From the IMG/VR virus record IMGVR_UViG_3300023179_000081: DNA of 20,000 bases. One strand, 5' to 3'. Of the stretch, positions 1 through 19,152 are shown piece by piece. The position numbers and the translations under genes were made by a program. The notes below the pieces were generated by a model. It ran no database searches, was not told the DNA's origin, and worked only from the letters and a program-made list of their open reading frames with translations. The number at the start of each line of letters is the position of its first letter. Position 1 is the stretch's first letter. The DNA comes from an uncultured virus (IMG/VR IMGVR_UViG_3300023179_000081). Taxonomy: Duplodnaviria > Heunggongvirae > Uroviricota > Caudoviricetes.

Positions 1-85
1 CACCATTTATGTTAACCATGAGATTCATCTTAGGGGGAGCGTACTGATTGGTTTTATAGATTGGTTTTTGTCTTTCGTTCTTCAT
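1..85 (-). CDS. Hypothetical protein, 5' part only (MKNERQKPIYKTNQYAPPKMNLMVNING...)
   Basis: ATG 6 nt after the TATAAT of motif copy 90-122. The frame is open to the window edge. Not in the ORF track. Confidence 0.75.
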   Translation of the reverse strand, partial: MKNERQKPIYKTNQYAPPKMNLMVNING

Positions 86-89
86 GTCT

Positions 90-122
90 TTATTATACCT
101 TTAGATTGTGAGGGTTGGAAAA
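90..122 (-). promoter_or_regulatory. Motif copy 1, leaderless-type promoter
   Basis: TTCCAA-17-TATAAT-6nt-ATG. Confidence 0.85.
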
Positions 123-148
123 TCTGGGCAGATGCGGTTCTCGAAGTT

Positions 149-823
149 TTAAGCTACTAGCCAATCGGTTTCGTCATAGATTTCTACGAATTCCTCCGCA
201 TATGGACTACTTATTCTGTATTTAGTACCTCGCGCGATTTCCACAATTCCCAACTCTGAGCGCCTTCCGTTAGCTTCTTCTCCTAATTCCTCCACTACTT
301 GGACGAGTGCTGGGTCCGCACGGTAAATTTTTTCAGAGCACAAAATATAGTTGTTGTATAATTCAGCGGATAACTTGCGAGCTTCCCAAGTAGCCTGATT
401 CCATTCGTAAATATTGTATAGTGCTCCTGTGCGCTCTTCCGGCGGCACCGTCCAATACCGCCAGCCTGTTAGTCCATCATCTTCTACCCATAGCTTGATA
501 CCTTTAAGCTCGGCATATCGGCGCAAACCTTTATCACTTAGGAGAAACATGTTGTCGGATTTGTTTATCACAATTTTTACCATCGGCGGGACTTCAGGTT
601 CTACAAGAAACTGACACGCACGATCATGTTCTAAAATCTTGCCGTCTACCAGGTCTGCCATCACGTAGTTTTCGCCAGAATCGTCGTTCGATATTGCCGT
701 GATAAGTAGTGTATCCCGGTCTACGATGGGCCAAGCATCCGGTACTACGAAGTATTCCATAGCTGAAATATGCTGTCCGATAAACCGTGCAGCTTCGTTG
801 GGGTTGATTTCGATAATTTCCAT
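149..823 (-). CDS. Hypothetical phage protein, C-terminal ~140 aa paralogous to 15929..16366
   Basis: 224-aa ORF with GAGGA Shine-Dalgarno before ATG. Shares K.VIN.S...RRYAELKGI...R.DP.LVQ..EELG with the paralog. Confidence 0.85.
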   Translation of the reverse strand: MEIIEINPNEAARFIGQHISAMEYFVVPDAWPIVDRDTLLITAISNDDSGENYVMADLVDGKILEHDRACQFLVEPEVPPMVKIVINKSDNMFLLSDKGLRRYAELKGIKLWVEDDGLTGWRYWTVPPEERTGALYNIYEWNQATWEARKLSAELYNNYILCSEKIYRADPALVQVVEELGEEANGRRSELGIVEIARGTKYRISSPYAEEFVEIYDETDWLVA

Positions 824-875
824 TGTTTTTTCCTCGTGTTTATTCTACTCGGTGATTGTGAGTCTCAATTAGTCG

Positions 876-908
876 TTATTATACCTTGGGTTCGTGAGGG
901 TTGGAAAA
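876..908 (-). promoter_or_regulatory. Motif copy 2 (leadered, followed by a degenerate copy at ~840-872)
   Basis: Full consensus match, no adjacent ATG. Confidence 0.8.
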
Positions 909-909
909 T

Positions 910-1296
910 TTAGTGTTGACATTCGAAGATGACCCATGCACCTGCGTAGCATCTGTCAAGTATACCCGTTACTGCCAAAAGTTGGTCAAGATCGTCAAAA
1001 AGATTCATAATAAGAGCAAATGTAATGTCAACCATGAATGCGTGAATTAGTTTATAAACTTCAAGGCAACAAATGTATGTTCGCACTCCATCTCTTTCGC
1101 CGATTAATTGGCAATCGCTAAAATGAAAACAATAATCTCCGTGATCGAAAATTCTGTAGCCGCAGCCTGCAATAGCATTTGCGCCAATTTCCAAAAGCAC
1201 ATGATTAATTAACTTTACGGAGATATACGGGTCAATAGAATGGAAGTAAAGTAATCCTATCATGTCCCGGTGATTATTCGTAACTACAGTGGTCAT
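910..1296 (-). CDS. Hypothetical protein
   Basis: Part of ORF 910..1344. ATG at 1296 avoids overlap with the upstream gene. The stop abuts motif copy 2. Confidence 0.7.
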   Translation of the reverse strand: MTTVVTNNHRDMIGLLYFHSIDPYISVKLINHVLLEIGANAIAGCGYRIFDHGDYCFHFSDCQLIGERDGVRTYICCLEVYKLIHAFMVDITFALIMNLFDDLDQLLAVTGILDRCYAGAWVIFECQH

Positions 1297-1303
1297 TGTT
1301 TTG

Positions 1304-1576
1304 TTAGATTTTGTTGTCTTTAATGTAGCTTGCGATTGAGTCAAGGTCGTATGGTAAGCTAAGCTCAGAGAAATGCTGCTCTAACTCGCCCATCCACAGC
1401 GGCTCACCGTTTGTAGTGGCGAAGAAAGTACCATTTTCGCACTCATAAAGCCGAGCAGCTTCATCAAATTGTTTTCCATTGTCGCAGATGAAACGGAATC
1501 GAGAGCCAACTGGGTAACTGCCGTTGAGAGATGAAGAACCGAAGTATTCGAGGTCGAGAGGGTAAGTATTGTGCAT
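1304..1576 (-). CDS. Hypothetical protein
   Basis: 90-aa ORF downstream of motif copy 3. Confidence 0.75.
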   Translation of the reverse strand: MHNTYPLDLEYFGSSSLNGSYPVGSRFRFICDNGKQFDEAARLYECENGTFFATTNGEPLWMGELEQHFSELSLPYDLDSIASYIKDNKI

Positions 1577-1597
1577 AGCGGTTTGCCTTTGTGTCCT

Positions 1598-1630
1598 TTA
1601 TTATACCTTTAGTTTGTGAGGGTTGGAAAC
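1598..1630 (-). promoter_or_regulatory. Motif copy 3 (short leader)
   Basis: Consensus match, ATG about 23 nt after TATAAT. Confidence 0.8.
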
Positions 1631-1638
1631 CGCGCGGA

Positions 1639-2292
1639 TTAGGATACCATTACAAAATCACCATCGTCATCTAGTTTATAGAATACGTTCGGAAGAATTC
1701 CGTTTTCTCCGACATATGCCGTTTTAATGCGGCAGCGTGAACCGCCCATAAACTCAATAACTAAAATTCCATTGTCGCCGGATGCGCATTGTCCACCATA
1801 ACCCGAAGTACTTGTTCCACCATAGCCTGAAATACTCGTTCCATAGTCGCCAGAAGTGCTTTTTCCTTCGCGACCAGAAGTACTTGTTCCATGGTATCCA
1901 GAAGTACTCGTTCCATAGTCGCCAGAAGTGCTTTTTCCTTCGCGACCAGAAGTACTTGTTCCATGGTATCCAGAAGTACTTGTTCCATGGTATCCAGAAG
2001 TACTTGTTCCTTCGCGACCAGAAGTACTTGTTCCATGGTATCCAGAAGTACTTGTTCCATGGTATCCAGAAGTACTTTGAACGATTCCTTCCTCATTCCA
2101 TGTGAAGTTAGGAGTTCGAAGGTGTTCTAGATCGTAACCTTCGACAACAAGCCATCTGAAGTATTCAAATTGCCCCTGGCGAATAGTTTCCAGTGCTGGA
2201 TCGAGTCCTGCGTCAAATGCGGCCTTGGCGAATTCAATACCGCTATCGCAAGCGTCGTCTGCAATAAGATTTTCGATGGTGAGCTTTTTCAT
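1639..2292 (-). CDS. Phage protein with octapeptide (TSTSGYHG-type) repeats, probable beta-solenoid
   Basis: 13 eight-residue Gly/Ser/Thr repeats and a C-terminal YVGENGILPNVFYKL motif. Leaderless start at motif copy 4. Confidence 0.85.
   Translation of the reverse strand: MKKLTIENLIADDACDSGIEFAKAAFDAGLDPALETIRQGQFEYFRWLVVEGYDLEHLRTPNFTWNEEGIVQSTSGYHGTSTSGYHGTSTSGREGTSTSGYHGTSTSGYHGTSTSGREGKSTSGDYGTSTSGYHGTSTSGREGKSTSGDYGTSISGYGGTSTSGYGGQCASGDNGILVIEFMGGSRCRIKTAYVGENGILPNVFYKLDDDGDFVMVS
1768..2079 (-). repeat. 24-bp coding tandem repeat, about 13 units
   Basis: Plus-strand units such as CCAGAAGTACTTGTTCCATGGTAT, in frame. Confidence 0.95.
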
Positions 2293-2297: not shown

Positions 2298-2330
2298 TTA
2301 TTATACCTTGTGTTTTTGAGGGTTGGAAAA
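2298..2330 (-). promoter_or_regulatory. Motif copy 4, leaderless-type promoter
   Basis: TATAAT-7nt-ATG(2292). Confidence 0.85.
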
Positions 2331-2906: not shown

Positions 2907-2939
2907 TTATTATACCTTTAAATTGTGAGGGTTGGAAAA
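2907..2939 (-). promoter_or_regulatory. Motif copy 5, leaderless-type promoter
   Basis: TATAAT-7nt-ATG(2901). Confidence 0.85.
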
Positions 2940-2943: not shown

Positions 2944-3360
2944 TTAAGACCATGACTTCAGCTTAGGAATTTGATTTAGCATCCATAAGTATTCTGGGTT
3001 GTTTCTGTCATTAGCGCTCCAATACCGCGTTAGAAACATAAGAGTCCTAAGATCGTAGAATTTGACACCAAGTTTATTTGCTTTAAACATGGATTCCAAA
3101 GCGGCTTTTACCCATGCTCTTGCTTTAGTGCTACCTTGAGTCAAAACAACTCGTTTTAAACTAAGGTCATCTACCCCGGTAACAACCCACTCTCCGCATA
3201 CTATATTAGCGTTTAGGGAAAGCATGCCTGAATGTAGATTTGCTAATTCTTCTGAGTTACGAAACTTATGTCCACAAGAATCAATGATAGGAAATTTCAT
3301 CGCACGAACCGAAAGTGGCTTACCCAGGCTTTTTTTATGGTAAGATAAAGCTGTTGCCAT
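2944..3360 (-). CDS. Hypothetical protein
   Basis: ATG at 3360 overlaps the upstream TAA (TAATG coupling). ATG at 3300 is an alternative start. Confidence 0.7.
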   Translation of the reverse strand: MATALSYHKKSLGKPLSVRAMKFPIIDSCGHKFRNSEELANLHSGMLSLNANIVCGEWVVTGVDDLSLKRVVLTQGSTKARAWVKAALESMFKANKLGVKFYDLRTLMFLTRYWSANDRNNPEYLWMLNQIPKLKSWS

Positions 3361-3668
3361 TAGACAGTTGGCCACCCGCAATTGCTGCGCAACCCATTTT
3401 TGAGTGCGTCTGCCGCTTTCTTGCCATTTTTGAGACCAATTGGTGGCAAGTGAATGTCGTGTGCTTCATCCATAGTGATTTGGATGGCCCCGTTAGAATA
3501 AAGGGTAATGCTGACGACATCATTGATTAAAAATTTTGGGTGTGTATAGGTCATCCAGGAATTAGAAATACCCTTGACCAATTCCCAACCACTCCAATCG
3601 TATCCCTGAAATTCTTTTGGAACCTCAGTTCCGTCGGCGAGCGTGTTTGAGTTTTTGTATTTTCTCAT
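3360..3668 (-). CDS. Hypothetical protein
   Basis: 102-aa ORF, leaderless start at motif copy 6. Confidence 0.8.
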   Translation of the reverse strand: MRKYKNSNTLADGTEVPKEFQGYDWSGWELVKGISNSWMTYTHPKFLINDVVSITLYSNGAIQITMDEAHDIHLPPIGLKNGKKAADALKNGLRSNCGWPTV

Positions 3669-3673: not shown

Positions 3674-3706
3674 TTATTATACCTTGTTCGCTTGAGAGTT
3701 GGAAAA
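3674..3706 (-). promoter_or_regulatory. Motif copy 6, leaderless-type promoter
   Basis: Identical over 33 bp to copies 8 and 9. Confidence 0.85.
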
Positions 3707-4336
3707 TTATGCTTCGATTAATTGTCGGAGTAGACCCGAAAAGTTAATATCACTCCACTTTACGCCAGTTTTACTATTTGGGGTGATGGCGATCAGTGCG
3801 CAAACCGCCCAATGAATTTTCAATTCAAAGATAGTATCATTATTATAATAATTGAGATAACTTAAAGTATGACTAAGGCCATATTTGATTGCGAACGAAT
3901 GAAGTTCAGGAAAGTCATAGTTGTCACGTTCAGGCTCAAGATTTGTGATCATAGCATCCCAATCATCACCTACTCCTTCTTAATCTGCAATCGGCTGGTA
4001 TTGCTTTAGCAACTCCCACACAAAAGCAACAATCAGCGTGAGTCTCTTTTTCTCCTTTTCTTTATCGCGACCAGTACCAGCCGCAAGCGGAAGAAATGCC
4101 TTCCACTTCTTAGTGTTTCGCATCCTGCCGGGCATTTCATCCTGCATTCTGACAATAAATTCTCCAATAACATTACTCATATAATCTGGAGTTACGTCAG
4201 TGTGAGTGCCAGTGACCGCGAGATTAATTGCAACGATGGAGCAGACTGATGTTTCGGTTTCCGTGCCACGTGAGAGTGTTTGCCCGACTAAGAAATCCGC
4301 GATCTTCTTTTCTTGTGCTTCAGTGATGGTGCTCAT
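3707..4336 (-). pseudogene. Hypothetical gene split by a single in-frame TAA at 3980-3982 (or two separate genes)
   Basis: ORFs 3980..4336 and 3707..3952 share a frame and are joined by 9 sense codons (QPIAD*EGVGDDWDAM). Together they fill one inter-motif cassette. Confidence 0.6.
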
Positions 4337-4340: not shown

Positions 4341-4373
4341 TTATTATACCTTGTGTTCTTGAGAGTTAGAAAA
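4341..4373 (-). promoter_or_regulatory. Motif copy 7, leaderless-type promoter
   Basis: TTCTAA-17-TATAAT-6nt-ATG(4336). Confidence 0.85.
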
Positions 4374-4389: not shown

Positions 4390-4851
4390 CTAGACCGGCA
4401 CCTTCATGCTACATACAAGTACTTGTCCATCTAGCAAAATCGCTTTAATACATGCAAGATAGACTTTTACCATATATGCGTTATCGCCCCATTTATCTCG
4501 CGCCAGCGTTTCAGTGGTCGCGTTGTATTCAAAAACATCAGTGGGATGGCCATGAGCATCCAGATGCTCTTTGACTTCAGGCCCAGTGTATGCAAGCACA
4601 TAGTCGCCACAAATTTCGAAGATACCATACTTTTGTAACACCGCGCGATAGTGCTCTTTGAAGAATGATCCCCGCTCACGCAACTTATTAGCGGTTTCAA
4701 GTTCATCCTCAAATTTTCGTTTACTGAACCACGAGAATACTAAACCTTCGTTGATATTATGGTCAATACGCAAGTCCAATTCAAACAAGCTCTTTCCGTT
4801 TTCGAAGAGTTCCATCTGATTTGGTTCGTATTTAAAAGTTTTATCGCTCAT
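4390..4851 (-). CDS. Hypothetical protein
   Basis: 153-aa ORF between motif copies 8 and 7. Confidence 0.85.
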   Translation of the reverse strand: MSDKTFKYEPNQMELFENGKSLFELDLRIDHNINEGLVFSWFSKRKFEDELETANKLRERGSFFKEHYRAVLQKYGIFEICGDYVLAYTGPEVKEHLDAHGHPTDVFEYNATTETLARDKWGDNAYMVKVYLACIKAILLDGQVLVCSMKVPV

Positions 4852-4855: not shown

Positions 4856-4888
4856 TTATTATACCTTGTTCGCTTGAGAGTTGGAAAA
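4856..4888 (-). promoter_or_regulatory. Motif copy 8, leaderless-type promoter
   Basis: TATAAT-6nt-ATG(4851). Confidence 0.85.
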
Positions 4889-4889: not shown

Positions 4890-5276
4890 CTAAATGACTT
4901 TGTTAATTACGATTTCAAAACCACCATAATAACCATTGTGTTCATTGTGATTTGCAAAAGAAATGTTGCCACGATCAGTGATGATTACCAAGAATTGAAT
5001 TGCACTAGAATGTGAATCCATCATATCAAATTCATCATCGACCCATTCTTCCGTTGCTTCTCGCAATTCTATTGAGAGAAAAGTTGCGCCTACATATTCG
5101 TCCAGACCATCATCTGTGGTCATATAGCGCCTTTCACAGCAACTTCGCTTGCTGTCGTAGATGTCAAACAGATTGTCACCAATAGAGAGCCTAAGTACAC
5201 TATAATCGCCTGATTGACCAAGGACAATTGACGTGATTTTTCGGCCAGATAATTCATTGAGATCTTCTAATTGCAC
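4890..5276 (-). CDS. Conserved-looking phage hypothetical protein (SCCE...HNGYYGG motifs)
   Basis: 128 aa, GTG start 6 nt after TATAAT, stop abuts the next motif. Confidence 0.85.
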   Translation of the reverse strand: MQLEDLNELSGRKITSIVLGQSGDYSVLRLSIGDNLFDIYDSKRSCCERRYMTTDDGLDEYVGATFLSIELREATEEWVDDEFDMMDSHSSAIQFLVIITDRGNISFANHNEHNGYYGGFEIVINKVI

Positions 5277-5280: not shown

Positions 5281-5313
5281 TTATTATACCTTGTTCGCTT
5301 GAGAGTTGGAAAA
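5281..5313 (-). promoter_or_regulatory. Motif copy 9, leaderless-type promoter
   Basis: TATAAT-6nt-GTG(5276). Confidence 0.85.
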
Positions 5314-5314: not shown

Positions 5315-5629
5315 CTAAGCGTTCCAGCGGGCGTTACGCAGTGATTCGATCACGGTGCGTTGGCTTACTGAATCGTTCCAATCTGCCAAACTTTCTGATC
5401 CATATCTTCGGCCCAGTGCCGCTTTATAAAGATCATAATCAAACTTTTCAGTGTTCATATCATGCACTGCTCGCATAATTGCTCCCTGAATACACCATGA
5501 TTTTGCATCTGGACTAAGAGCCCAGCAAGGTCGCTGGAGCCAATCTCGCGCGTTTGTGAGCTTGCAATGGCCAATAGTGACAAGTTCTTCAGCACGACGA
5601 TAAACTTCTGCTAGTTTAGGATTTCTCAT
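5315..5629 (-). CDS. Hypothetical phage protein (WCxxGAI...WND motifs, DUF6197-like by recall)
   Basis: 104 aa, ATGA overlap with the upstream gene. Confidence 0.75.
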   Translation of the reverse strand: MRNPKLAEVYRRAEELVTIGHCKLTNARDWLQRPCWALSPDAKSWCIQGAIMRAVHDMNTEKFDYDLYKAALGRRYGSESLADWNDSVSQRTVIESLRNARWNA

Positions 5630-5946
5630 GGTTCGTTCCAGAAACGCAAATCAGTTTCATAATAACCGCCATAACCACAAGTGTCACAACCATCAACATC
5701 ATCACGCCCAGTTTCTGCACCCTGGTTCACGCCAAGAATCTTAGCGATTTCTAGGTATGCTGTTAGCGTCGAATATGATCCGTGGAACGAGACATAATCA
5801 CTACCACCGCGAACAGTAATGTGATATCCGTCGTCTCGCGTTTGAATCGAAAATGTGCCACGCTCGCCAAGCCAAAAAACTTTCTTGATCGCTTCAATCT
5901 GTTCTTCGGTTGGTTTACTGTAGGTTTTCTTCGCAGGTTTGCTCAT
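5626..5946 (-). CDS. Hypothetical protein with GCDTCGYG motif
   Basis: Start re-assigned to ATG 5946 (MSKPAKK), 6 nt after TATAAT of motif copy 10. Confidence 0.8.
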   Translation of the reverse strand: MSKPAKKTYSKPTEEQIEAIKKVFWLGERGTFSIQTRDDGYHITVRGGSDYVSFHGSYSTLTAYLEIAKILGVNQGAETGRDDVDGCDTCGYGGYYETDLRFWNEP

Positions 5947-5950: not shown

Positions 5951-5983
5951 TTATTATACCCGTGCTGCCTGAGTGTTGGAAAG
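5951..5983 (-). promoter_or_regulatory. Motif copy 10, leaderless-type promoter
   Basis: Consensus match, overlapped by the 3' end of the upstream gene. Confidence 0.8.
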
Positions 5984-6563: not shown

Positions 6564-6596
6564 TTATTATACCCACGTGGTCTGAGTGTTGGAAAT
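6564..6596 (-). promoter_or_regulatory. Motif copy 11, leaderless-type promoter
   Basis: TATAAT-6nt-ATG(6559). Confidence 0.85.
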
Positions 6597-7444: not shown

Positions 7445-7477
7445 TTATTATACCTTTAGATTGTGAGGGTGAGAAAC
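7445..7477 (-). promoter_or_regulatory. Motif copy 12, leaderless-type promoter
   Basis: TTCTCA-17-TATAAT-7nt-ATG(7439). Confidence 0.85.
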
Positions 7478-8559: not shown

Positions 8560-8592
8560 TTATTATACCTTCAGATCGTGAGGGTTGGAAAA
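8560..8592 (-). promoter_or_regulatory. Motif copy 13, leaderless-type promoter
   Basis: TATAAT-7nt-ATG(8554). Confidence 0.85.
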
Positions 8593-9162: not shown

Positions 9163-9195
9163 TTATTATACCTTTAGATCGTGAGGGTTGGAAAA
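9163..9195 (-). promoter_or_regulatory. Motif copy 14, leaderless-type promoter
   Basis: TATAAT-7nt-ATG(9157), with palindrome AATCGCGCGATT at 9194-9205. Confidence 0.85.
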
Positions 9196-9793: not shown

Positions 9794-9826
9794 TTATTAT
9801 ACCTTTAGATTGTGAGTGTTGGAAAA
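9794..9826 (-). promoter_or_regulatory. Motif copy 15, leaderless-type promoter
   Basis: TATAAT-7nt-ATG(9788). Confidence 0.85.
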
Positions 9827-10276: not shown

Positions 10277-10309
10277 TTATTATACCCGGAATTCCTGAGG
10301 GTTAGAAAA
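10277..10309 (-). promoter_or_regulatory. Motif copy 16 (precedes a structured leader, HNH gene and tRNA)
   Basis: TTCTAA-17-TATAAT, no adjacent ATG. Confidence 0.8.
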
Positions 10310-10317
10310 TCGCGCCA

Positions 10318-11040: not shown

Positions 11041-11044
11041 GTGT

Positions 11045-11077
11045 TTATTATACCTTCAGAGTGTGAGCGTGAGAAAA
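11045..11077 (-). promoter_or_regulatory. Motif copy 17, leaderless-type promoter
   Basis: TTCTCA-17-TATAAT-6nt-ATG(11040). Confidence 0.85.
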
Positions 11078-11099
11078 TCGCGCGGGTTCCGTCAGCCCA

Positions 11100-11744: not shown

Positions 11745-11777
11745 TTATTATACCCAAACGCGCTGAGGGTTAGAAAA
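11745..11777 (-). promoter_or_regulatory. Motif copy 18 (leadered)
   Basis: TTCTAA-17-TATAAT. Confidence 0.8.
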
Positions 11778-12679: not shown

Positions 12680-13187
12680 TTAGTTTTTCCTGGTAAACTT
12701 GAAACTCTTGTTCACCAAACATAGCAAACACAATGGTTTCGAGGCTGGTTTCATTGACCTTGAGCCAATCGAAAATGGTTGACAATGCAATATCGCAAGC
12801 CTCTTCCAGAGGATATCCATAGATTCCAGTGCTAATTGAGCAGAAAGCTATAGTCTTAGCGCCAGCTAAAGTTGCCGTGGAAAGAATTGCAGTGTACACA
12901 CTAGCGAGTGCGTCACTCTCACCAGATTCACCGTCGATCCACACCGGACCAGGAGCGTGAATGATTGATTGTGGTAAATTAAAACCACTGGTTAGGACCA
13001 CTTCACCTGCCTTGATTGGGTTCGGGTACTGCTCTTTGAGATACGCGAGCAAATCTGGTCCGGCAAAATTATGGATTGCGCCGTCGATACCGCCGCCGCC
13101 ACGAAGCCTTGCGTTTGCCGCGTTAACAATGATATCAACATCTTGATCGATAACCGATCCCCTGACTAGCTTAAATTCTTGTGTCAT
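12663..13187 (-). CDS. Macro domain protein (YmdB/MacroD-like ADP-ribose hydrolase)
   Basis: DIIVNAANARLRGGGGIDGAIH, IIHAPGPVW and IAFCSISTGIYGYP motifs. Start re-assigned to ATG 13187 at motif copy 19. Confidence 0.93.
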   Translation of the reverse strand: MTQEFKLVRGSVIDQDVDIIVNAANARLRGGGGIDGAIHNFAGPDLLAYLKEQYPNPIKAGEVVLTSGFNLPQSIIHAPGPVWIDGESGESDALASVYTAILSTATLAGAKTIAFCSISTGIYGYPLEEACDIALSTIFDWLKVNETSLETIVFAMFGEQEFQVYQEKLNEDRA

Positions 13188-13191
13188 GTGT

Positions 13192-13224
13192 TTATTATAC
13201 CCGTTGGTTTTGAGTGTTGGAAAG
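13192..13224 (-). promoter_or_regulatory. Motif copy 19, leaderless-type promoter
   Basis: TATAAT-6nt-ATG(13187). Confidence 0.85.
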
Positions 13225-13280
13225 ATTGTGAGGGAGGGTGGTGCATAGGTGGTCCTAATTTTATTGTGCAATTATGTAAT

Positions 13281-13955
13281 ATGACTGAAAAACAAAAACA
13301 ACTTATCGAATCTCTTAAAGACTATTATAATCAACACGAATTTATATCAAAATTAAAGTTCCCTAGATCAACAACTATAAATAGGCATTTTGGATCTTGG
13401 AATAAAGCATTATCTCAGGCTGGAATTCCAACTAGAGAAAGAGTCACCGAGCGTGTTGAATTGGCATGTAAGAAATGTGGAGCATCATTCACGCGCCCGC
13501 AATCGGGAGTTCAGCAAAATAATTTTTGCAACAAATCATGTGCTGCGTCATATAACAATCGTGTCCAAAAACGCAAAAATAAACCAAAACAGGAATGTGA
13601 AGGGTGCAAGGCCGATGTCAATATTGGTATTCAATTTTGTAAACAATGCATTATTGATCGTCGCGACGTGCCTATAAGTGAGCTATTCTATGAAGGTAAC
13701 AGAGCCAGTAAATACGCAAAAATCAGACATCGCGCTCGAAAATCTTACCTGAAGGAAAAACCATATGAATGTGCTGTTTGTGGATATAAGCTACATATTG
13801 AGGTGGCGCATCTCAAAGCCATTAGTAAATTTGAACCACATACATTGTTGTCAGTTGTTAACAATTTAAGTAATTTAGTTGGTTTATGTAAACGATGCCA
13901 TTGGGAACTAGATAATGGACATCTTAAATTAGAACCAAATGAAATTGAAAAATGA
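13281..13955 (+). CDS. HNH homing-type endonuclease with N-terminal FGSWNKAL repeat and zinc fingers
   Basis: RHFGSWNKALSQAG, CKKC...FCNKSC and CAVCG...EVAH...NNLSNLVGLCKRCHWELD. Only credible plus-strand gene, and it looks AT-rich. Confidence 0.88.
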   Translation: MTEKQKQLIESLKDYYNQHEFISKLKFPRSTTINRHFGSWNKALSQAGIPTRERVTERVELACKKCGASFTRPQSGVQQNNFCNKSCAASYNNRVQKRKNKPKQECEGCKADVNIGIQFCKQCIIDRRDVPISELFYEGNRASKYAKIRHRARKSYLKEKPYECAVCGYKLHIEVAHLKAISKFEPHTLLSVVNNLSNLVGLCKRCHWELDNGHLKLEPNEIEK

Positions 13956-13998: not shown

Positions 13999-14077
13999 TG
14001 GTGGGCACGCTCAGATTCAAACTGAGTCACTCTCGCTTATGAGGCGAACGCTAGAAATTCATACCAGCTTCGTGCCC
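13999..14077 (-). tRNA. tRNA with CAT anticodon (Met or lysidine-type Ile2)
   Basis: Acceptor GGGCACG/CGTGCCC-A-CCA, anticodon arm TTCGC-CTCATAA-GCGAG, T-arm CTCAG-TTTGAAT-CTGAG. Confidence 0.85.
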
Positions 14078-14102
14078 AAAACCTATACATATCACAATCG
14101 TT

Positions 14103-14172
14103 ACACTCAAGAACTACACTCAAAAACTTCTCTCAAGAACTACACTCGCCAGAGCTTCACTCAAGAGCTACA
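14103..14172. repeat. Five imperfect 13-bp tandem repeats (ACACTCAAGAACT)
   Basis: ACACTCAAGAACT, ACACTCAAAAACT, TCTCTCAAGAACT, ACACTCGCCAGAGCT, TCACTCAAGAGCT, then ACA. Confidence 0.9.
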
Positions 14173-14188: not shown

Positions 14189-14221
14189 TTATTATACACA
14201 ATCGCTCTGAGTGTTAGAAAA
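14189..14221 (-). promoter_or_regulatory. Motif copy 20 (precedes the repeat leader and tRNA-CAT)
   Basis: TTCTAA-17-TATAAT with TG before the -10 box. Confidence 0.8.
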
Positions 14222-14223: not shown

Positions 14224-14300
14224 TGGTAGACGCGGTAGGATTTGAACCCACGACCTGACGGTTATATGCCACCTGCTCTAACCAACTGAGCTACACGTCC
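14224..14300 (-). tRNA. tRNA-Ile(TAT)
   Basis: GGACGTG-TA-GCTC-AGTTGGTTA-GAGC-A-GGTGG-CATATAA-CCGTC-AGGTC-GTGGG-TTCAAAT-CCTAC-CGCGTCT-A-CCA. Confidence 0.88.
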
Positions 14301-14311
14301 ACTTTACACCC

Positions 14312-14344
14312 TTATTATACCCAATGGTTCTGAGCGTGAGAAAA
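14312..14344 (-). promoter_or_regulatory. Motif copy 21 (precedes tRNA-Ile)
   Basis: TTCTCA-17-TATAAT, 13 nt before the tRNA 5' end. Confidence 0.85.
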
Positions 14345-14352
14345 TCGCGCCA

Positions 14353-15015
14353 TTAGAGTTCCTCAATCACTTCAAACCGAGTACAACGAATCTTGCCACC
14401 ATTGTGAACAAGCGCTGCAACATCGTCTAGATGAATTTTGACCTTGATGAGTTTCTGATCACAATATGCACGAGCTTTCTTTTCAGTCCATGCGGAAAGA
14501 CCGAATGAATTTTCATTGTACAGATTGTGATCTGCGTGAGCTTCGTAAATACCTCCCAATTCATAATGGTTTTGGAAGTTATAGACAGAATAACCATCTG
14601 ATCGAATCCCTTTATAAGCAATCACATAATCGCCATCGAGTTCATAAAAGCCAAGATCTTCAATTGCTTTTCGCTTAGTTTCTTTATCTGCGTATAGCCA
14701 GTTGTTTTCTGGAAGGTTCAGATTGTGTTTAATGCGGAATTCCTCGGAGAGCTTCTGGTATTTGCTGATGTAATGCCATCCTACCCATCCTACACGATCT
14801 GCATTGCGTTCAATGAATTCCTCGGAGAGTTTTTGGTGTGCGCTTATACATAGCCAATTCACACGATCTGCATTGCGTTCAATGAATTGCTCGGAGAGTT
14901 TTTGACGGCTACTGATGTAATACCAATCCACACGCTTGGAATGTCGTTCAATGAATTCATCGGAGAGTGGCTGCTTGTAGCTATTATAGTCATTAAAATC
15001 AAATTCTGGTGTCAT
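14353..15015 (-). CDS. Tryptophan-repeat protein (3 x 23-aa repeats), paralog of 10318..11040
   Basis: Start re-assigned to ATG 15015 (MTPEFDF, same as the paralog). Strong DNA similarity to the paralog. Confidence 0.9.
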   Translation of the reverse strand: MTPEFDFNDYNSYKQPLSDEFIERHSKRVDWYYISSRQKLSEQFIERNADRVNWLCISAHQKLSEEFIERNADRVGWVGWHYISKYQKLSEEFRIKHNLNLPENNWLYADKETKRKAIEDLGFYELDGDYVIAYKGIRSDGYSVYNFQNHYELGGIYEAHADHNLYNENSFGLSAWTEKKARAYCDQKLIKVKIHLDDVAALVHNGGKIRCTRFEVIEEL

Positions 15016-15019
15016 GTGT

Positions 15020-15052
15020 TTATTATACCCGTTGGTTTTGAGCGTTAGAAAA
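15020..15052 (-). promoter_or_regulatory. Motif copy 22, leaderless-type promoter
   Basis: TATAAT-6nt-ATG(15015). Confidence 0.85.
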
Positions 15053-15061
15053 TCGTGTGGA

Positions 15062-15670
15062 TTAAGCGTTGACTTTAGCGTATGGATTGATGCCATAAGC
15101 GTTAATTAACAATTGTTTGTTAATTAACGCATCCTTACTCACGCGCTCTTCGAGTTCATATGAGCCATTTGAGATATCCATTGGCCATTTATATTCTTGG
15201 CAAAAAAGCTCCGAATGCTTCATCTCTTCCCAATCAAATTCTCGATACCAAGCAATCGTCAGATGTGCATTTTTCTGGCCTTTTAATAGTTCCTCATATC
15301 CTTTCTGAAGTAGGCGATATCGATGACTGCTGTGAACTAGTTCATCTCCCCACCAGATGGGCAATTCGCTATCTGAAACCAAATCACGATACATACACAA
15401 TCGTTCCTTGCAATAATCAGATTTAAAGTTCCTATGATCACATTCAGCGATGCCAGCCGCAAGATAATCGATCAATGCTCCTGGTGTGGGTTTCCACATC
15501 ATCAAGGCAGGATGGTTAGTCCATCCTGTGCGCGGCTTCCCGCTTTTCGTAGGCAGATCAAGTATCGTATCGAGCAACTGTGTGGTTTCGAGATTTTGCT
15601 TGACAAGTCTACGGTTATCTAAGCACTTGTGAGATTTCGCGAAATCAGCATACGGAACAAATGTTTGCAT
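15062..15670 (-). CDS. Pyrimidine-dimer DNA glycosylase/endonuclease V-like protein (MSMEG_6728-type)
   Basis: MQTFVPYADF...LDNRRLVKQNLE..Q...GWTNHPALMMW...P.WWGDELVHSSHR..LL.K. Confidence 0.85.
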   Translation of the reverse strand: MQTFVPYADFAKSHKCLDNRRLVKQNLETTQLLDTILDLPTKSGKPRTGWTNHPALMMWKPTPGALIDYLAAGIAECDHRNFKSDYCKERLCMYRDLVSDSELPIWWGDELVHSSHRYRLLQKGYEELLKGQKNAHLTIAWYREFDWEEMKHSELFCQEYKWPMDISNGSYELEERVSKDALINKQLLINAYGINPYAKVNA

Positions 15671-15674: not shown

Positions 15675-15707
15675 TTATTATACCCTCGTTCTGCGAGTGT
15701 CGGAAAA
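15675..15707 (-). promoter_or_regulatory. Motif copy 23, leaderless-type promoter
   Basis: TTCCGA-17-TATAAT-6nt-ATG(15670), CTCG variant of the box. Confidence 0.8.
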
Positions 15708-15932
15708 AACTAGTCGCTTATCAAGCGGGTCTCCATAAACGAAAAATGCAGTGATTTCGTTGTAAGACTCACAATCTAAACTTCTGCGCGAATAACCAAG
15801 AAACTGGTCATACAGTTTGCGATTGTCAAAGGTAACAGAAGCAAAACGACCATCTTGCTCTACAGTGTAACTATCCTGATGACATCCGTCAAAGAATTTA
15901 ATCAAATGACTCTTAAGATCTTCTGAATTCAA
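15678..15932 (-). CDS. Hypothetical protein
   Basis: TTG start overlapping the upstream TGA. The stop is the TAA in the TATAAT of copy 23. Confidence 0.65.
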   Translation of the reverse strand: MNSEDLKSHLIKFFDGCHQDSYTVEQDGRFASVTFDNRKLYDQFLGYSRRSLDCESYNEITAFFVYGDPLDKRLVFSDTRRTRV

Positions 15933-16366
15933 GCTGTTCTCCAGTTGTGCCCGTATTCTGCCTCAATAATATCCTCAAAACCTTCATTGTAATCGTTAAT
16001 CCGATATATGGTACCTTTATCGACTTCCATGATTCTGATTTTACCACCATCTGCGTGAGCCGTATCACCTAACTCTTCAATTGTTTGAACAAGAAAAGGA
16101 TCAGTGCGATCAAAATCTGTGTCGGTTATAGTGCCTTCGCGCTTGATGCGGTTAGATCGTGCACGCTCTAAAATAGTGGCCTTTTTTAAATCAGATATAT
16201 CATCTAAGTAGCCAATTCTATTCTCTTCTGAAACAACCCAGTAATCTGGAAATAACCCATCCTCGACATAAATAGGAATCCCTTTAAGTTCCGCGTAACG
16301 TCGCATAGCCGCTTCGCTTAGGCGGAATGGAGTATAAGATCGATTGATTACGACTTTTGTTTTCAT
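15929..16366 (-). CDS. Hypothetical phage protein, paralog of the C-terminal part of 149..823
   Basis: KVVINRSY..F.LSEAAMRRYAELKGI...RTDPFLVQTIEELG. Confidence 0.85.
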   Translation of the reverse strand: MKTKVVINRSYTPFRLSEAAMRRYAELKGIPIYVEDGLFPDYWVVSEENRIGYLDDISDLKKATILERARSNRIKREGTITDTDFDRTDPFLVQTIEELGDTAHADGGKIRIMEVDKGTIYRINDYNEGFEDIIEAEYGHNWRTA

Positions 16367-16370
16367 GTAT

Positions 16371-16394
16371 TTATTAATTATGAGGGTTGGAAAA
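16371..16394 (-). promoter_or_regulatory. Motif copy 24 with net 9-bp internal deletion
   Basis: Plus strand TTATTAATTA-TGAGGGTTGGAAAA, TATAAT disrupted. Confidence 0.7.
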
Positions 16395-16399: not shown

Positions 16400-16834
16400 T
16401 CATCGCAATGGGTCGCATTTGACCACTCTAATGTAGCTGAATTTATTAAAATGGCCTTTCCACATGTATGTGTGGAATTTAATGCCGCCGATGTCATGGT
16501 ACGGATATGTATTGCCATCAAGCTCTACATTTAAGTCGCTTTTGACAAAATCTTGAATTCTCTGCGCTAAATCCGCATCGTGAGTTGCACCGACGACATA
16601 AATATACGCATCTCTATAATCATTGAACGAATCTCCGCCAGAATAAACCACGTAGATAAGATAAATATCTTTCTTTGGATTGTATTCACTGATATTGGTA
16701 CGCCAGTCATAACGTGAGTACTTTGTGCTTTTCTTAGTAGCTTTGCTAACACCAGTGAATTCCCATGTATTCCAGGTCTCTTCCGAGAATAAATCTGCTC
16801 CCGATTCGTGATTGAAATTAGCTATGATTTCCAT
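16400..16834 (-). CDS. Hypothetical phage protein (VVYSGGDSF...WKGHF motifs)
   Basis: Start re-assigned to ATG 16834 (MEIIANF) at motif copy 25. Confidence 0.8.
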   Translation of the reverse strand: MEIIANFNHESGADLFSEETWNTWEFTGVSKATKKSTKYSRYDWRTNISEYNPKKDIYLIYVVYSGGDSFNDYRDAYIYVVGATHDADLAQRIQDFVKSDLNVELDGNTYPYHDIGGIKFHTYMWKGHFNKFSYIRVVKCDPLR

Positions 16835-16838: not shown

Positions 16839-16871
16839 TTATTATACCTAGTCTTTCTGAGGGTTGGAAAA
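16839..16871 (-). promoter_or_regulatory. Motif copy 25, leaderless-type promoter
   Basis: TATAAT-6nt-ATG(16834). Confidence 0.85.
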
Positions 16872-17153: not shown

Positions 17154-17155
17154 AT

Positions 17156-17368
17156 TCAAAGCTTGATGATTTTGCCGCAATACGCACATTCAGACATATC
17201 ATAATCTGGAAAATTTGGTTCGCGGTGTTGCTCTTTCCAAGTTCTAGTAAATCCCCAATGTCCACATTTGGTAGCGTGAACACGCAGAGCTTCTTTAAGT
17301 TCTGCGTTTATCTTGATCCAACTTGCTATTTCGTTAATTGTTTCTGGCTGCAATCCTATTTTTTCCAT
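17156..17368 (-). CDS. Small Cys/His-containing protein (CGH...CAYCG), possible zinc binder
   Basis: 70 aa, TAATG coupling with the upstream gene. Confidence 0.7.
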   Translation of the reverse strand: MEKIGLQPETINEIASWIKINAELKEALRVHATKCGHWGFTRTWKEQHREPNFPDYDMSECAYCGKIIKL

Positions 17369-17922
17369 TAATCTTGCTCCATATTGTAATATTCTTTCGT
17401 TCGATTATATTTCTCTTCGAGAAACGTCGTGATTAATTTTCGCTGTGCGTCCACTAGTGCGCGAAGATGAATGCATTCGCGGAGTAATTCTTTTGGATTC
17501 TTCAAGAGATTAGCTTCCTCTGAAGGGTTCTCAGGAATATATTCTTCTCCGTTTAAATACCAACGTGGTCGATCTTTACTCTGCACAGGCGGCAAATAAG
17601 CTGGTCCTGCTTCGTTGTGTAAGTTGCCTTCGTAATAAAATTCAAGTAGTCCGCTAGGATAAATGCACGCAGGTCCGTTGGTTCGATGTAAAACACCACC
17701 CTTGTAATGAAAAGTCGTACCATCTTCAGATGAATATTCACCGTCGGCAATGTAACCTTCTTTATTGAGCCAATTAATGAAGTAAAAATTGTTATTATGC
17801 AGACATAGAGCGATGATCGCCTCTCTATCGCAATACACCTGCTCAGCATACTCAATAAGACCGCGAGGTGCCAATCGCTCCTGGAGATTTTCGATTGTTA
17901 ATTCTAAAAGTTCTGGTTCCAT
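17368..17922 (-). CDS. Protein with LHRxxGPA beta-hairpin repeats
   Basis: GVLHRTNGPACIY and GNLHNEAGPAYL...WYLNG. Leaderless start at motif copy 26. Confidence 0.85.
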   Translation of the reverse strand: MEPELLELTIENLQERLAPRGLIEYAEQVYCDREAIIALCLHNNNFYFINWLNKEGYIADGEYSSEDGTTFHYKGGVLHRTNGPACIYPSGLLEFYYEGNLHNEAGPAYLPPVQSKDRPRWYLNGEEYIPENPSEEANLLKNPKELLRECIHLRALVDAQRKLITTFLEEKYNRTKEYYNMEQD

Positions 17923-17926
17923 GTGT

Positions 17927-17960
17927 TTATTATACCCGCACCAATTTGAGAGTAGGAAAA
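17927..17960 (-). promoter_or_regulatory. Motif copy 26 (one extra spacer base), leaderless-type promoter
   Basis: TTCCTA-18-TATAAT-6nt-ATG(17922). Confidence 0.8.
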
Positions 17961-17974
17961 TCTAAGATTTCCTT

Positions 17975-18481
17975 TTAGCGATGAAGACGCGGATATCCTT
18001 CGATACAATCGCCGCGAAGCCATGCGTGGGCCTGCCGCTTGTGCTTGAAAAGCAACCGACGCGGTTCGATTTTGCCATCGATCTCGATATCAAATGAAGC
18101 AGACCATGGAAGATGCGGCAAAGAGAAACCGTCTACCTTTTTTGGTCCATGGAATTTGGTAATATTGACTCTCGTCGAATGATCGCCACCACCATCACGA
18201 TAGTTATCATCGTAATAGGCAATTACCTTAGTTTTCTGTTGACGGTGTTTCCGAAGCTCACGGTATGCCTCAAGCGTCATTTCGCGAGCTTCAGCCACTG
18301 TCTCACCTTGAGAATTAACACCTGGAATTTCCATGATGTAAGAAGAGAATCCACCTTCTTCAGCGGGCTCAATCACAATTGTAATTGTTTCGAATTCAGA
18401 TTGTGATCTCTCTCTATTCTTGGCAACAGTGCGATCAAGACGATCCCAGTAACGCGCGAATTCTTCAGTTGTGTTAGTCAT
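17975..18481 (-). CDS. HicB-like domain fused to an uncharacterised C-terminal domain
   Basis: TIVIEPAEEGGFSSYIMEIPGVNSQGETVAEAREMTLEA is a typical HicB N-terminal motif. Confidence 0.8.
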   Translation of the reverse strand: MTNTTEEFARYWDRLDRTVAKNRERSQSEFETITIVIEPAEEGGFSSYIMEIPGVNSQGETVAEAREMTLEAYRELRKHRQQKTKVIAYYDDNYRDGGGDHSTRVNITKFHGPKKVDGFSLPHLPWSASFDIEIDGKIEPRRLLFKHKRQAHAWLRGDCIEGYPRLHR

Positions 18482-18487
18482 TTTAAA

Positions 18488-18682
18488 CTATCCAGATACA
18501 GGGCGCTGGAATTTATTCGAGAACATGCCAGCAAATTCTCCTACCTTCTTTCCGAAGTAGAACTCGCCGATCTCGTACCATTCGCCATCGATCTGCTTTT
18601 GGTCGCCAGCCTTCAAGACATCGTCCTTTTCAAGCCGAATAAAATTCGTATTTCCGGTGTTTTCCATTTGTGCGTTTTGCAT
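18488..18682 (-). CDS. Small hypothetical protein (single L...D....GD...W...G...RP domain)
   Basis: 64 aa, similar to the C-terminus of 18697..19059. Confidence 0.75.
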   Translation of the reverse strand: MQNAQMENTGNTNFIRLEKDDVLKAGDQKQIDGEWYEIGEFYFGKKVGEFAGMFSNKFQRPVSG

Positions 18683-18696
18683 GGTCTTGTGTCGTA

Positions 18697-19059
18697 TCAG
18701 TCGCTAAGTGGTCGCTTGAATTCAGCCGTAAAATCTTTCGTGCTCTTGCCAGCGTAAAAACCATCAACATCGCGCCATTGCTCAAGGATGAGGATCATGT
18801 CGCCTAATTCAATAGTCTCATCTTTTCCAAGCTTCCGAAAGTAAACTTCCGTTGCAATCTCCTTGGCGTTCAAATGAACACCGCCAGCTAATGCAGTCTC
18901 GTGCAACGCATTAAGCTCGTCAAAGGTATTCTCACCATTCTCTTGCTTCTTAAGATTAGCGCTATCGATTGAGTGGGAAATTAGTTTCAGGGTGATAAAA
19001 GTCACTACTCCCGTTAAAATAAGCGTGATTGCCCAAAACTCAGTGTTGGTAAAGATCAT
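18697..19059 (-). CDS. Membrane-anchored hypothetical protein
   Basis: N-terminal hydrophobic helix FWAITLILTGVVTFITLKLI, GGAG Shine-Dalgarno. Confidence 0.8.
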   Translation of the reverse strand: MIFTNTEFWAITLILTGVVTFITLKLISHSIDSANLKKQENGENTFDELNALHETALAGGVHLNAKEIATEVYFRKLGKDETIELGDMILILEQWRDVDGFYAGKSTKDFTAEFKRPLSD

Positions 19060-19119
19060 CGCGTAACTCCGATTGTGTTGTGTGTGTTCATATTTGTGCT
19101 CTGCTGTTGGTCAGCGATT

Positions 19120-19152
19120 TTATTATACCCAACGAATGTGAGGGTTGGAAAA
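19120..19152 (-). promoter_or_regulatory. Motif copy 27 (leadered, flanked by 15-bp inverted repeats)
   Basis: Consensus match. Confidence 0.85.

Follow-up and report, generated by a model that had tools for sequence, protein, structure and literature searches.

A repeated promoter motif with predicted leaderless starts heads many accessory genes of an uncultured lake phage

In phages of the T4 type a repeated unit known as the promoter-early stem-loop (PeSL) combines a stem-loop terminator, a strong early promoter, a Shine–Dalgarno sequence and an ATG. PeSLs flank ORFans in hyperplastic regions, where they recombine to give indels and mini-circles, and they have been described for RB49/phi1, T4/PST and KVP40/nt-1 (PMC2839356, PMC4122927). 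Most transcripts of the Thermus phages phiYS40 and Lalka27a are leaderless (PMC3594737; bioRxiv 10.64898/2026.04.20.719267), and the signature of a leaderless gene in bacteria is a TANNNT about 12 bp before the start codon (PMC3160421). Transcripts of phages phiKZ and AR9 have leaders. Here we describe a stretch of 20,000 nucleotides (nt), which we call the window, from an uncultured virus of the Caudoviricetes (IMG/VR record IMGVR_UViG_3300023179_000081). On its minus strand a single motif, TTTTCCAAC-N-CTCA-N9-GGTATAATAA, is present in 26 complete copies and a degraded one. We consider it likely, judging from the sequence, that these are the main promoters of the pre-replicative accessory genes of this phage, read by the host RNA polymerase with its primary sigma factor and giving mRNAs with predicted leaders of 0–1 nt.

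How does this array compare with the systems above? Like the PeSLs, it consists of many near-identical sigma-70-like promoters in a variable part of a large phage genome, where they precede small genes whose functions are mostly unknown. Degraded copies occur here too, comparable to the 'half PeSLs' of nt-1 and PST (PMC4122927). Junctions of exchange and duplication lie at the repeats, and genes could plausibly be turned over through recombination between repeats. The differences are that the array is without a stem-loop terminator (an upstream hairpin accompanies 1 of 26 copies) and without a Shine–Dalgarno sequence, so that leaderless mRNA is predicted, and that it has an extra invariant box, AAC-N-CTCA. 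A preliminary description of this DNA had drawn the PeSL comparison, and as a statement of how the units work it stands; membership of the PeSL class does not, in view of the single hairpin, the 19 terminator-like sites against 16.1 expected and the lack of Shine–Dalgarno sequences. Signs of a T4-type phage are an rIIA homologue (locus L027) and a weak rIIB match (L028) on related contigs, while no T4 core structural or replication gene is seen in the DNA visible to us. Homologues of rIIA and rIIB are also present in Streptomyces phage TunaTartare, so the rII genes do not prove a T4 type.

With the Thermus phages the array would share phage-wide starts on an initiator A or G, from conserved promoter classes read by host RNA polymerase. 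However, the Thermus phages infect a thermophile from a phylum where about 40% of the host genes lack a leader, their starts have been mapped experimentally, they have several promoter classes that are without the AAC-N-CTCA box, and these promoters are not known as recombination modules. The phage studied here is mesophilic, comes from lakes and has 42% GC (guanine plus cytosine), and its starts are predicted from sequence alone. Promoter repeats and leaderless transcription are each known separately; their combination is new as far as the open-access literature that we searched goes, in which we found no description of leaderless promoter arrays in T4-like phages, cyanophages or actinophages.

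The motif is far from random. A search of both strands with the consensus given in the preliminary description, allowing up to three mismatches, returned 25 matches, all on the minus strand; in 200 dinucleotide-preserving shuffles both the mean and the maximum were 0. A looser regular expression, CTC[AG]-N9/10-[GT]N-TATAAT, which leaves the first 10 bases unconstrained, gave 26 matches on the minus strand and none on the other, the copy gained (17927-17960) having a gap of 10 nt. Though unconstrained, the first ten bases read TTTTC(C/T)NAC in every one of these matches. Taken by itself, the 5′ block is likewise present 26 times, always on the minus strand and never on the plus strand, and 26 of the 34 minus-strand TATAAT hexamers sit within the motif. 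The count of 27 co-oriented copies reported earlier therefore holds, as 26 complete copies plus the degraded copy at 16367-16394.

The window is not the only place where the motif is found. Contigs nearly identical to the window are present in 8 metagenome runs from lakes or fresh water, 12 runs from six studies contain some or all of it, and its proteins recur on a 150,970-bp contig. A single scan of metagenome contigs, made with the exact conserved positions and with 300-bp flanks, gave 39 loci. Seven of these (L013-L016 and L030-L032) are the window itself, and the remaining loci hold 28 further distinct copies on lake-metagenome contigs of up to 28 kb. An ATG or GTG follows at 6–7 nt in 18 of these further copies, at 5 nt in one and at 9 nt in three. 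The copy in L027 is fused to the start of the rIIA homologue (E = 1.7e-30), and the copy that follows it downstream is fused to the weak rIIB match in L028; others precede a nicotinamide phosphoribosyltransferase gene, here with a leader, and further tryptophan-repeat genes. ClpP-like, DnaK-like, NusG-like and deaminase-like fragments lie near metagenome copies. Since the motif heads many genes on other contigs, it is no mere local oddity but the promoter shared across a large accessory region. In L033 the start of a DnaK/Hsp70-like gene (446-631, plus strand; MSKIIAIDLGTSNS...) is divergent from a motif-headed gene, and may mark the edge of the array there.

Outside these metagenomes little was found. 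There was no near match to the window among 50,697 phage records and no exact motif in a viral-contig collection, where relaxing the pattern for the -10 half brought up 5 single matches of unrelated GC content and without protein similarity to the window, and where 0 relatives of the RNA ligase were confirmed. Among 185,579 bacterial and archaeal species genomes the motif matched only twice, each time in a single copy, which is about the number expected by chance; the two matches, on a contig of an Anaerolineales metagenome-assembled genome (MAG) with 68.5% GC and in a Methanospirillum MAG, show no similarity to the window. Within the species genomes searched, as far as such matching can tell, the motif is not a recognisable host promoter or prophage.

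The copies allow the conservation of the motif to be followed base by base. Numbering the TATAAT as -12 to -7, the (near-)invariant positions across 53 distinct copies are T-36 to C-33, A-30, C-29, C-27 to A-24, G-14, G-13, the hexamer, A-6 and A-5; C is preferred at -1, and the sequence is free to vary at -28 and over the nine positions -23 to -15. C-29, C-27, T-26 and C-25 are invariant and A-24 is kept in 52 of the 53, and in the window the TATAAT is invariant in all 26 complete copies. Across the 53, GG-TATAAT has a mean pairwise identity of 0.995 and the 14-nt block one of 0.89, whereas the 9-nt spacer has 0.36 and the upstream sequence 0.28; these values are inflated for the 28 metagenome copies, which were retrieved by an exact pattern over conserved positions, but the window's own 26 copies, retrieved by the loose expression, show the same contrast between block and spacer. 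Such conservation next to a variable spacer and upstream region argues that the blocks are kept by selection and not by recent copying alone. By this comparison the extra box AAC-N-CTCA (-31 to -24) is under selection, and the near-invariant CTCA noticed earlier inside the promoter spacer is real. A further extension, (TAAT)-S-GCGCG-A/T, lies directly 5′ of TTTTC in 6 of the 26 copies (those at 14344, 11077, 10309, 9195, 4373 and 1630) and in the metagenome copy of L036. This suggests a subfamily mark, its carriers perhaps having been propagated as a longer unit of about 45–50 bp.

Start codons are placed with equal regularity. Of the 26 complete copies, 19 have an ATG (18) or GTG (1) placed 6 nt (12 copies) or 7 nt (7 copies) 3′ of TATAAT, so that the first T of the hexamer precedes the start codon by 12 or 13 nt respectively. 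These 19 copies agree with the published leaderless pattern, a TANNNT about 12 nt before the start and no Shine–Dalgarno sequence. The geometry had been noticed before with a count of 20, the twentieth probably being the degraded copy. Open reading frames (ORFs) of 102–358 codons follow 18 of the 19 abutting starts and the nineteenth, that of the 90-122 copy, leaves the window; all told, the motif heads 19 of the 38 minus-strand protein genes defined there. The other 7 complete copies are found before the transfer RNA (tRNA) for isoleucine (1), before a leader and a tRNA(CAU) (1) and before genes with 5′ untranslated regions (5′UTRs; 5). Alignments to family profiles start on the predicted first residue or close beside it: the Pyr_excise profile at residue 1 of the gene at 15062-15670, that of the RNA ligase (PF21189) with residue 4 aligned to profile position 1, DUF7448, on the GTG start, with residue 8 aligned to profile position 2, and the rIIA profile in L027 on the methionine right after the motif. 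As far as homology can tell, then, these starts are real.

The space between promoter and abutting start, 6–7 nt after TATAAT, leaves no room for a Shine–Dalgarno sequence and none is present, as had been stated. Where no promoter abuts the start, GGAG, GAGG or AGGA is found 6–9 nt upstream in about 9 of 17 window genes, and several others overlap the preceding stop; the host evidently reads Shine–Dalgarno sequences. On the other side of the motif the units are tightly packed. The stop codon of the upstream ORF lies 0–9 nt before the motif in 14 of 26 copies, 14–48 nt before it in 7, and inside it in 3, as a TAG in the spacer (16871) or as the TAA of TATAAT (15707, 5983); of the remaining two copies, one lies 2 nt past tRNA-Ile and the other past a convergent plus-strand gene. 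Eight of the nine pairs of stop and motif listed in the preliminary description check out, but in the ninth, 9828/9826, the nearest upstream stop is 38 nt away. Terminators are not enriched (19 terminator-like sites found against 16.1 expected), and a hairpin upstream of the motif falls below the 5th percentile of 400 background windows at the 6596 copy only (1 of 26; Mann–Whitney p = 0.11). With no terminators between units, read-through RNA must exist, and since the promoter-fused genes would have no ribosome-binding site on such RNA, each of them appears to need its own copy of the promoter.

Do the units move? The preliminary description had pictured plug-in cassettes of promoter and gene, and three observations lean that way. 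In the metagenome locus L007 a homologue of the gene at 1639-2292 (82% identity) lies behind the same promoter, the similarity starting exactly at the motif; upstream of the motif L007 has an unrelated small unit where the window has the gene at 2332-2901. Within the window, the segments 10230-11130 and 14270-15100 are duplicates, with a mean column identity of 85% over the whole alignment. The duplicate spans its own promoter, the gene, and then the 5′ half of the next promoter (TAATGGCGCGATTTTCT-AC-CTCAG), so that it is bounded by motif copies at both ends; beyond these ends the sequences are unrelated, one side running into tRNA-Ile and the other into the leader of an HNH gene. Adjacent copies are also more alike than others, differing at 8.12 of 37 positions compared with 9.58 for all pairs (permutation p = 0.0018), with common spacers in the neighbour runs 3706/4888/5313 and 8592/9195/9826. 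The degraded half-copy at 16367-16394 is counted on the same side. Taken together, this is consistent with some turnover of genes by recombination between repeats, which we put forward tentatively, and the cassette picture keeps a corresponding, limited part of its force. Many joints and loose ends of public contigs coincide with motif edges (of the 24 loose ends listed, 11 are no more than 6 nt from an edge); these were rejected as evidence of mosaicism, because a 33-bp repeat in contigs built with k = 31 will itself create such joints and any contig that bears the motif aligns by the motif alone.

What, then, reads this promoter? The -35 element can be read as TTCCAA with a 17-bp spacer (3 of 6 positions agreeing with TTGACA) or as TTTCCA with 18 bp (4 of 6). 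A promoter scan scored 23 copies at 10 of 12 against TTGACA-N17/18-TATAAT, with TTTCCA/18 in 20 and TTCTCA/17 in 3. This bears out the sigma70-type geometry recognised at the outset, i.e. a perfect TATAAT, a -35 at 17 or 18 bp and a start codon where transcription should begin. The perfect primary-sigma -10, the canonical spacing and the sheer number of copies favour the unmodified host polymerase, which, with a sigma factor of the sigma-70/sigma-A type, would read GG-TATAAT and the -35 (TTTCCA/18 or TTCCAA/17). Transcription is expected 7 nt past the hexamer, at a purine preceded by C. In the 6-nt copies the predicted +1 should thus be the initial A or G of the start codon itself; in the 7-nt copies it should be either this base or the one just before it. 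Transcription would then start on the start codon or one base ahead of it, and the mRNAs probably have a leader of 0–1 nt. Such mRNAs, having no ribosome-binding site, would be translated by the leaderless route, while second genes within a unit would use a Shine–Dalgarno sequence or an overlapping stop and start. Tight packing would be accommodated, with the preceding stop abutting or entering the next promoter, and the homology of the repeat, about 33–45 bp, could let ordinary recombination duplicate, lose or exchange genes. In this scheme the anatomy, the non-randomness, the spread and the selection on both boxes are observations, and the start sites, the form of the polymerase, the timing and the role in recombination are predicted from them.

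A number of points weigh against this scheme. The -35 agrees with TTGACA at only 3–4 of 6 positions, and we know of no primary sigma factor that reads bases at -31 to -24, where AAC-N-CTCA is invariant, so the host polymerase alone may not explain the conservation; that said, T4 early promoters too carry 'additional regions of consensus' (PMC2988021). The 'early' timing is inferred from gene content alone (rIIA, small ORFans and tRNAs), and in T4 the rII genes and tRNAs are also served by middle promoters (PMC2988021). In hosts resembling E. coli leaderless translation is weak, and nearly dead when initiated at GTG (PMC4633059). None of the 12 runs that hold the stretch is recorded as RNA, the start sites being predicted by geometry; the conservation of the metagenome copies carries the inflation mentioned above; and what speaks for shuffling is one junction in a locus of 946 bp (L007), one old duplication and a modest effect among neighbours.

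The box at -31 to -24 leads to the alternatives that deserve most attention. The preliminary description had already pictured an unusual host sigma or a dedicated factor. The promoter could be factor-dependent, through appropriation of the host sigma factor as in T4 or through a phage sigma factor. The array would then be a regulon of the middle type, with its leaderless output unchanged, and TTTTCCAAC-N-CTCA (-37 to -24) would be the candidate site for an activator, encoded by the phage or delivered by the virion, or for region 4 of a phage sigma factor. We regard this as possible, though unlikely. The block reaches 6 bp downstream of any -35 hexamer and is conserved equally to the hexamer; its invariant bases are interrupted by the free position -28, and it has no dyad symmetry, as would be expected where a monomer binds. 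Its distance from TATAAT is 11 bp, compared with 12 ± 1 bp between the -10 and the MotA box of T4 middle promoters, at -35 to -26, and like those promoters, which also pair a host-type -10 with a phage-specific box near -30, the motif drives tRNAs and rIIA (PMC2988021). That no bacterial or archaeal species genome has the motif beyond the two chance-level matches fits as well. However, the MotA box, (a/t)(a/t)TGCTT(t/c)a, is unrelated in sequence to TTTTCCAAC-N-CTCA, in which TGCTT is absent; T4 middle genes have leaders and Shine–Dalgarno sequences, and the window motif has a readable, canonically spaced -35 which, together with its perfect -10, resembles strong early promoters. A phage needs promoters for the unmodified host polymerase, and no other repeated promoter class is seen in the window. 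Scans found no homologue of MotA, AsiA, sigma or WhiB among 40 window proteins (Pfam; 39 also with PHROGs) or 45 ORF fragments from the loci (PHROGs), a coverage of about 20 kb and short loci in a genome of at least 151 kb. A comparison of the block's AAC with promoters of the extracytoplasmic function (ECF) type was dropped, since the -10 is a perfect primary-sigma hexamer. The block might instead be an operator laid over an ordinary host promoter, at which a repressor or shut-off protein silences the array later in infection. This is compatible with host polymerase reading the promoter, and to us quite unlikely. The invariant sequence does overlap the -35 and the upstream spacer in every copy, the units are separated by no terminator or other timing device, and phages shut off their early promoters as a set. 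Yet an asymmetric 14-nt site is unusual, as repressors mostly bind dyads, the scanned window proteins and ORF fragments include no candidate regulator, and the sequence gives nothing to tell a repressor from an activator. Several of these ideas can also be joined in one scheme, in which a phage protein, delivered by the virion or made first, reads AAC-N-CTCA and, much as in sigma appropriation, retargets the primary-sigma polymerase so that most of the accessory genome runs as leaderless one-gene units whose repeat doubles as the joint for exchange; as a whole this is speculative and rather unlikely. If it were true, the host, possibly a low-GC freshwater actinobacterium, would translate 5′-terminal AUG and GUG efficiently, leaderless units would escape any shut-off of leadered host translation, and the repeat would join genes that are duplicated and exchanged among co-occurring phages.

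Two further explanations question the leaderless mRNAs and the origin of the repeat. If transcription started elsewhere, or if read-through dominated, the genes could be translated by internal initiation independent of Shine–Dalgarno sequences, with TATAAT acting also as an A/U-rich enhancer. Read-through RNA must indeed exist, an A-rich sequence (TATAATAAACAC) precedes each ATG, genes of Cyanobacteria and Bacteroidetes are often neither Shine–Dalgarno-led nor leaderless (PMC3160421), and cyanophages are among the best matches of the RNA ligase. But a translation signal has no need of a full, bipartite and strand-specific promoter with a fixed spacing of 17 or 18 bp, translation is irrelevant to the two tRNAs that the motif drives, and the GGAG-type sequences of motif-less window genes point to a host that reads them; we think this very unlikely. 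The other explanation, highly improbable in our judgement, is gene capture as in integrons, with a site-specific recombinase inserting cassettes of promoter and gene at the repeat. Co-oriented single-gene units bounded by a repeat are what integrons show, and the repeat-bounded duplication and the L007 junction at the repeat would suit it. The 40 window proteins scanned with Pfam (39 also with PHROGs), however, include no integrase or recombinase family, there are no attC-like hairpins, and the resemblance to an integron suggested in the preliminary description falls away accordingly. Integron cassettes share a common promoter, Pc, whereas here each unit has its own and the repeat itself is the promoter, a function which explains both of its halves. 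Homologous recombination between repeats of 33–45 bp would suffice, as has been argued for PeSLs (PMC2839356).

The host bears on how a leaderless array would be translated. A mixture of leaderless genes, starting on ATG and GTG, with Shine–Dalgarno-led genes is typical of Actinobacteria, where leaderless translation is as efficient as leadered translation (PMC4633059, PMC3160421), and the array shares with Actinobacteria and Deinococcus-Thermus this mixture, both start codons and the distance from -10 to start. Protein matches are divided. Actinobacterial phages make up 6 of the 10 phage records matched by the Pyr_excise glycosylase, and a NadV fragment matches mycobacteriophages best (52%), while the best matches of the RNA ligase are Limnohabitans and Synechococcus phages (46%). 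The rIIA fragment is about equally close to Streptomyces phage TunaTartare (43%) and Vibrio phage KVP40 (42%, with the better E-value), the ClpP matches are uninformative, and the Actinomycetia phage DSL-LC01 has one weakly similar gene in common with the window. On these matches, which are suggestive of Actinobacteria but drawn from heavily biased databases, we are evenly balanced as to whether the host is actinobacterial.

Microbacterium phage Cece, a large actinophage that has been isolated in culture, is a useful point of comparison. In the region examined (L048, record 85876-106244), 7 of 28 genes have TTGACN-N17/18-TAnnnT-N6/7-ATG, as read from the printed upstream sequences, and homologues of the Pyr_excise glycosylase and of the RNA ligase stand side by side, each behind TTGACN-N17/18-TAnnnT-N6-ATG. 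The promoters of Cece differ individually, whereas the window repeats one 33-bp sequence almost verbatim, with a non-canonical -35. At Cece genes 117, 120 and 154 a terminator hairpin overlaps the -35. The leaderless geometry is found in 0 of 27 genes of the TunaTartare locus, so this architecture is not general to large actinophages. The same locus (L049, record 84618-96908) has a repeated intergenic element made up of a GC-rich hairpin, AAGCTT, a Shine–Dalgarno sequence and an ATG, resembling a cassette of terminator and signals.

If transcripts do start on the start codons, this phage would express most of its accessory genes from more than 50 copies of one promoter, and would do so without ribosome-binding sites. 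This would extend a strategy documented experimentally only in Thermus phages to an abundant mesophilic lake phage. The copies form a natural test set for the role of a non-canonical -35 and spacer box, for the handling of leaderless mRNA in hosts other than E. coli, and for the relation of promoter repeats to gene turnover. There are practical consequences for annotation too: gene callers that expect a Shine–Dalgarno sequence will mis-start such genes, and the motif itself could guide the annotation of starts and help to identify contigs from this phage group.

The individual copies are listed in Table 1.

Table 1. Copies of the promoter motif in the window, with the gene or RNA that follows each; distances in nt run from TATAAT to the start codon (aa, amino acids)
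Feature	Coordinates	Strand	Start and downstream feature	Remarks
Motif copy	19120..19152	-	No adjacent start; 5′UTR of about 86 nt, then ATG 19059; gene 18697-19059	GGAG 7 nt upstream of the ATG
Motif copy	17927..17960	-	ATG 17922 at 6 nt; gene 17368-17922, 184 aa	10-nt gap (TTTTCCTACTCTCA...)
Motif copy	16839..16871	-	ATG 16834 at 6 nt; gene 16400-16834, 144 aa	TAG of upstream ORF in spacer
Degraded copy	16367..16394	-	ATG 16366; gene 15929-16366, 145 aa	5′ block TTTTCCAACCCTCA intact; spacer and -10 replaced by TAATTAATAAATAC, followed by the ATG
Motif copy	15675..15707	-	ATG 15670 at 6 nt; gene 15062-15670, 202 aa, Pyr_excise	Upstream ORF ends at TAA of TATAAT
Motif copy	15020..15052	-	ATG 15015 at 6 nt; gene 14353-15015, 220 aa	Tryptophan-repeat family (phrog_3532)
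Motif copy	14312..14344	-	Without start codon; drives tRNA-Ile(UAU) 14224-14300	
Motif copy	14189..14221	-	Leader of about 110 nt, then third tRNA (CAU) 14002-14077	2 nt past tRNA-Ile
Motif copy	13192..13224	-	ATG 13187 at 6 nt; Macro-domain gene 12663-13187, 174 aa	
Motif copy	11745..11777	-	5′UTR, then ATG 11715; gene 11413-11715	
Motif copy	11045..11077	-	ATG 11040 at 6 nt; gene 10318-11040, 240 aa	70% identical in amino acids to its paralogue 14353-15015
Motif copy	10277..10309	-	Structured 5′UTR, then HNH endonuclease gene 9865-10203	
Motif copy	9794..9826	-	ATG 9788 at 7 nt; gene 9204-9788, 194 aa	
Motif copy	9163..9195	-	ATG 9157 at 7 nt; gene 8594-9157, 187 aa	phrog_30528 aligned from residue 1
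Motif copy	8560..8592	-	ATG 8554 at 7 nt; RNA ligase gene 7478-8554, 358 aa	PF21189
Motif copy	7445..7477	-	ATG 7439 at 7 nt; gene 6894-7439, 181 aa	Weak DUF4241 match below Pfam cut-off; upstream stop at 0 nt
Motif copy	6564..6596	-	ATG 6559 at 6 nt; gene 5954-6559, 201 aa	Strong hairpin upstream (-17.9 kcal/mol, then TTT), unique among the copies
Motif copy	5951..5983	-	ATG 5946 at 6 nt; gene 5626-5946, 106 aa	Upstream gene ends at TAA of TATAAT
Motif copy	5281..5313	-	GTG 5276 at 6 nt; gene 4890-5276, 128 aa, DUF7448	37 nt identical to the 4888 copy
Motif copy	4856..4888	-	ATG 4851 at 6 nt; gene 4390-4851, 153 aa	
Motif copy	4341..4373	-	ATG 4336 at 6 nt; gene 3980-4336, 118 aa	
Motif copy	3674..3706	-	ATG 3668 at 7 nt; gene 3360-3668, 102 aa	Upstream stop abuts motif
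Motif copy	2907..2939	-	ATG 2901 at 7 nt; gene 2332-2901, 189 aa	
Motif copy	2298..2330	-	ATG 2292 at 7 nt; gene 1639-2292, 217 aa	24/72-nt tandem repeat in gene; L007 homology begins at this copy
Motif copy	1598..1630	-	5′UTR, then ATG 1576; gene 1304-1576	
Motif copy	876..908	-	5′UTR, then ATG 823; gene 149-823	GAGG 8 nt upstream of the ATG
Motif copy	90..122	-	ATG 85 at 6 nt; ORF leaves window	Open for at least 98 codons in L032

The first copy in the table has a feature that is unique among the copies. A perfect 13-bp inverted repeat, GGTCAGCGATTTT ... AAAATCGCTGACC at 19149-19161 and 19109-19121 (minus strand), encloses it, and on read-through RNA this would put the promoter sequence within a hairpin.

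All genes of the window but one are on the minus strand, and most are without a known family; the GC content is 38–45%. Recognisable products are the RNA ligase, a Macro domain, a pyrimidine dimer glycosylase of the T4 endonuclease V type, two HNH endonucleases, DUF7448, DUF6197 and the weak DUF4241 match. Besides the two tryptophan-repeat paralogues there are five further paralogous pairs. The sole plus-strand gene (13179-13955) resembles an HNH homing endonuclease (HNH_repeat, HNH_2) and is convergent with the array. It sits between the tRNA cluster and the promoter of the Macro gene, and looks like a selfish insertion.

The third tRNA (14002-14077, minus strand) was missed by ARAGORN and is recognised by Rfam with 44.1 bits (gathering score 29). 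Its anticodon loop is CUCAUAA, the anticodon CAU being that of methionine or of lysidine-modified isoleucine, and its acceptor ends in CCA. The leader of this tRNA contains about five tandem copies of a 13-nt unit (GAGTGTAGTTCTT-like) at 14102-14172 on the minus strand, and the 196-nt stretch that holds these repeats folds slightly better than shuffled sequences (z = -2.15).

Two of the protein genes carry internal repeats of their own. A tandem repeat of 24/72 nt at 1801-2078 (minus strand), in the gene at 1639-2292, encodes an array rich in G-T-S-T-S-G-Y/R-H/E. In all four public runs a contig skips 57 nt here (2035 to 2093), so the number of repeats may vary by strain or may have been collapsed in assembly. 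The tryptophan-repeat family (phrog_3532), with internal repeats of 69 nt, is represented by the genes at 10318-11040 and 14353-15015 (minus strand) and in loci L020, L033 and L037. The family is multi-copy in several jumbo phages; Bacillus phage G has 24 places, and Bacillus phage vB_BpuM-BpSp and Listeria phage LPJP1 have 39 apiece. Read depth at the tryptophan-repeat genes is several-fold higher in public runs, which suggests many relatives or copies.

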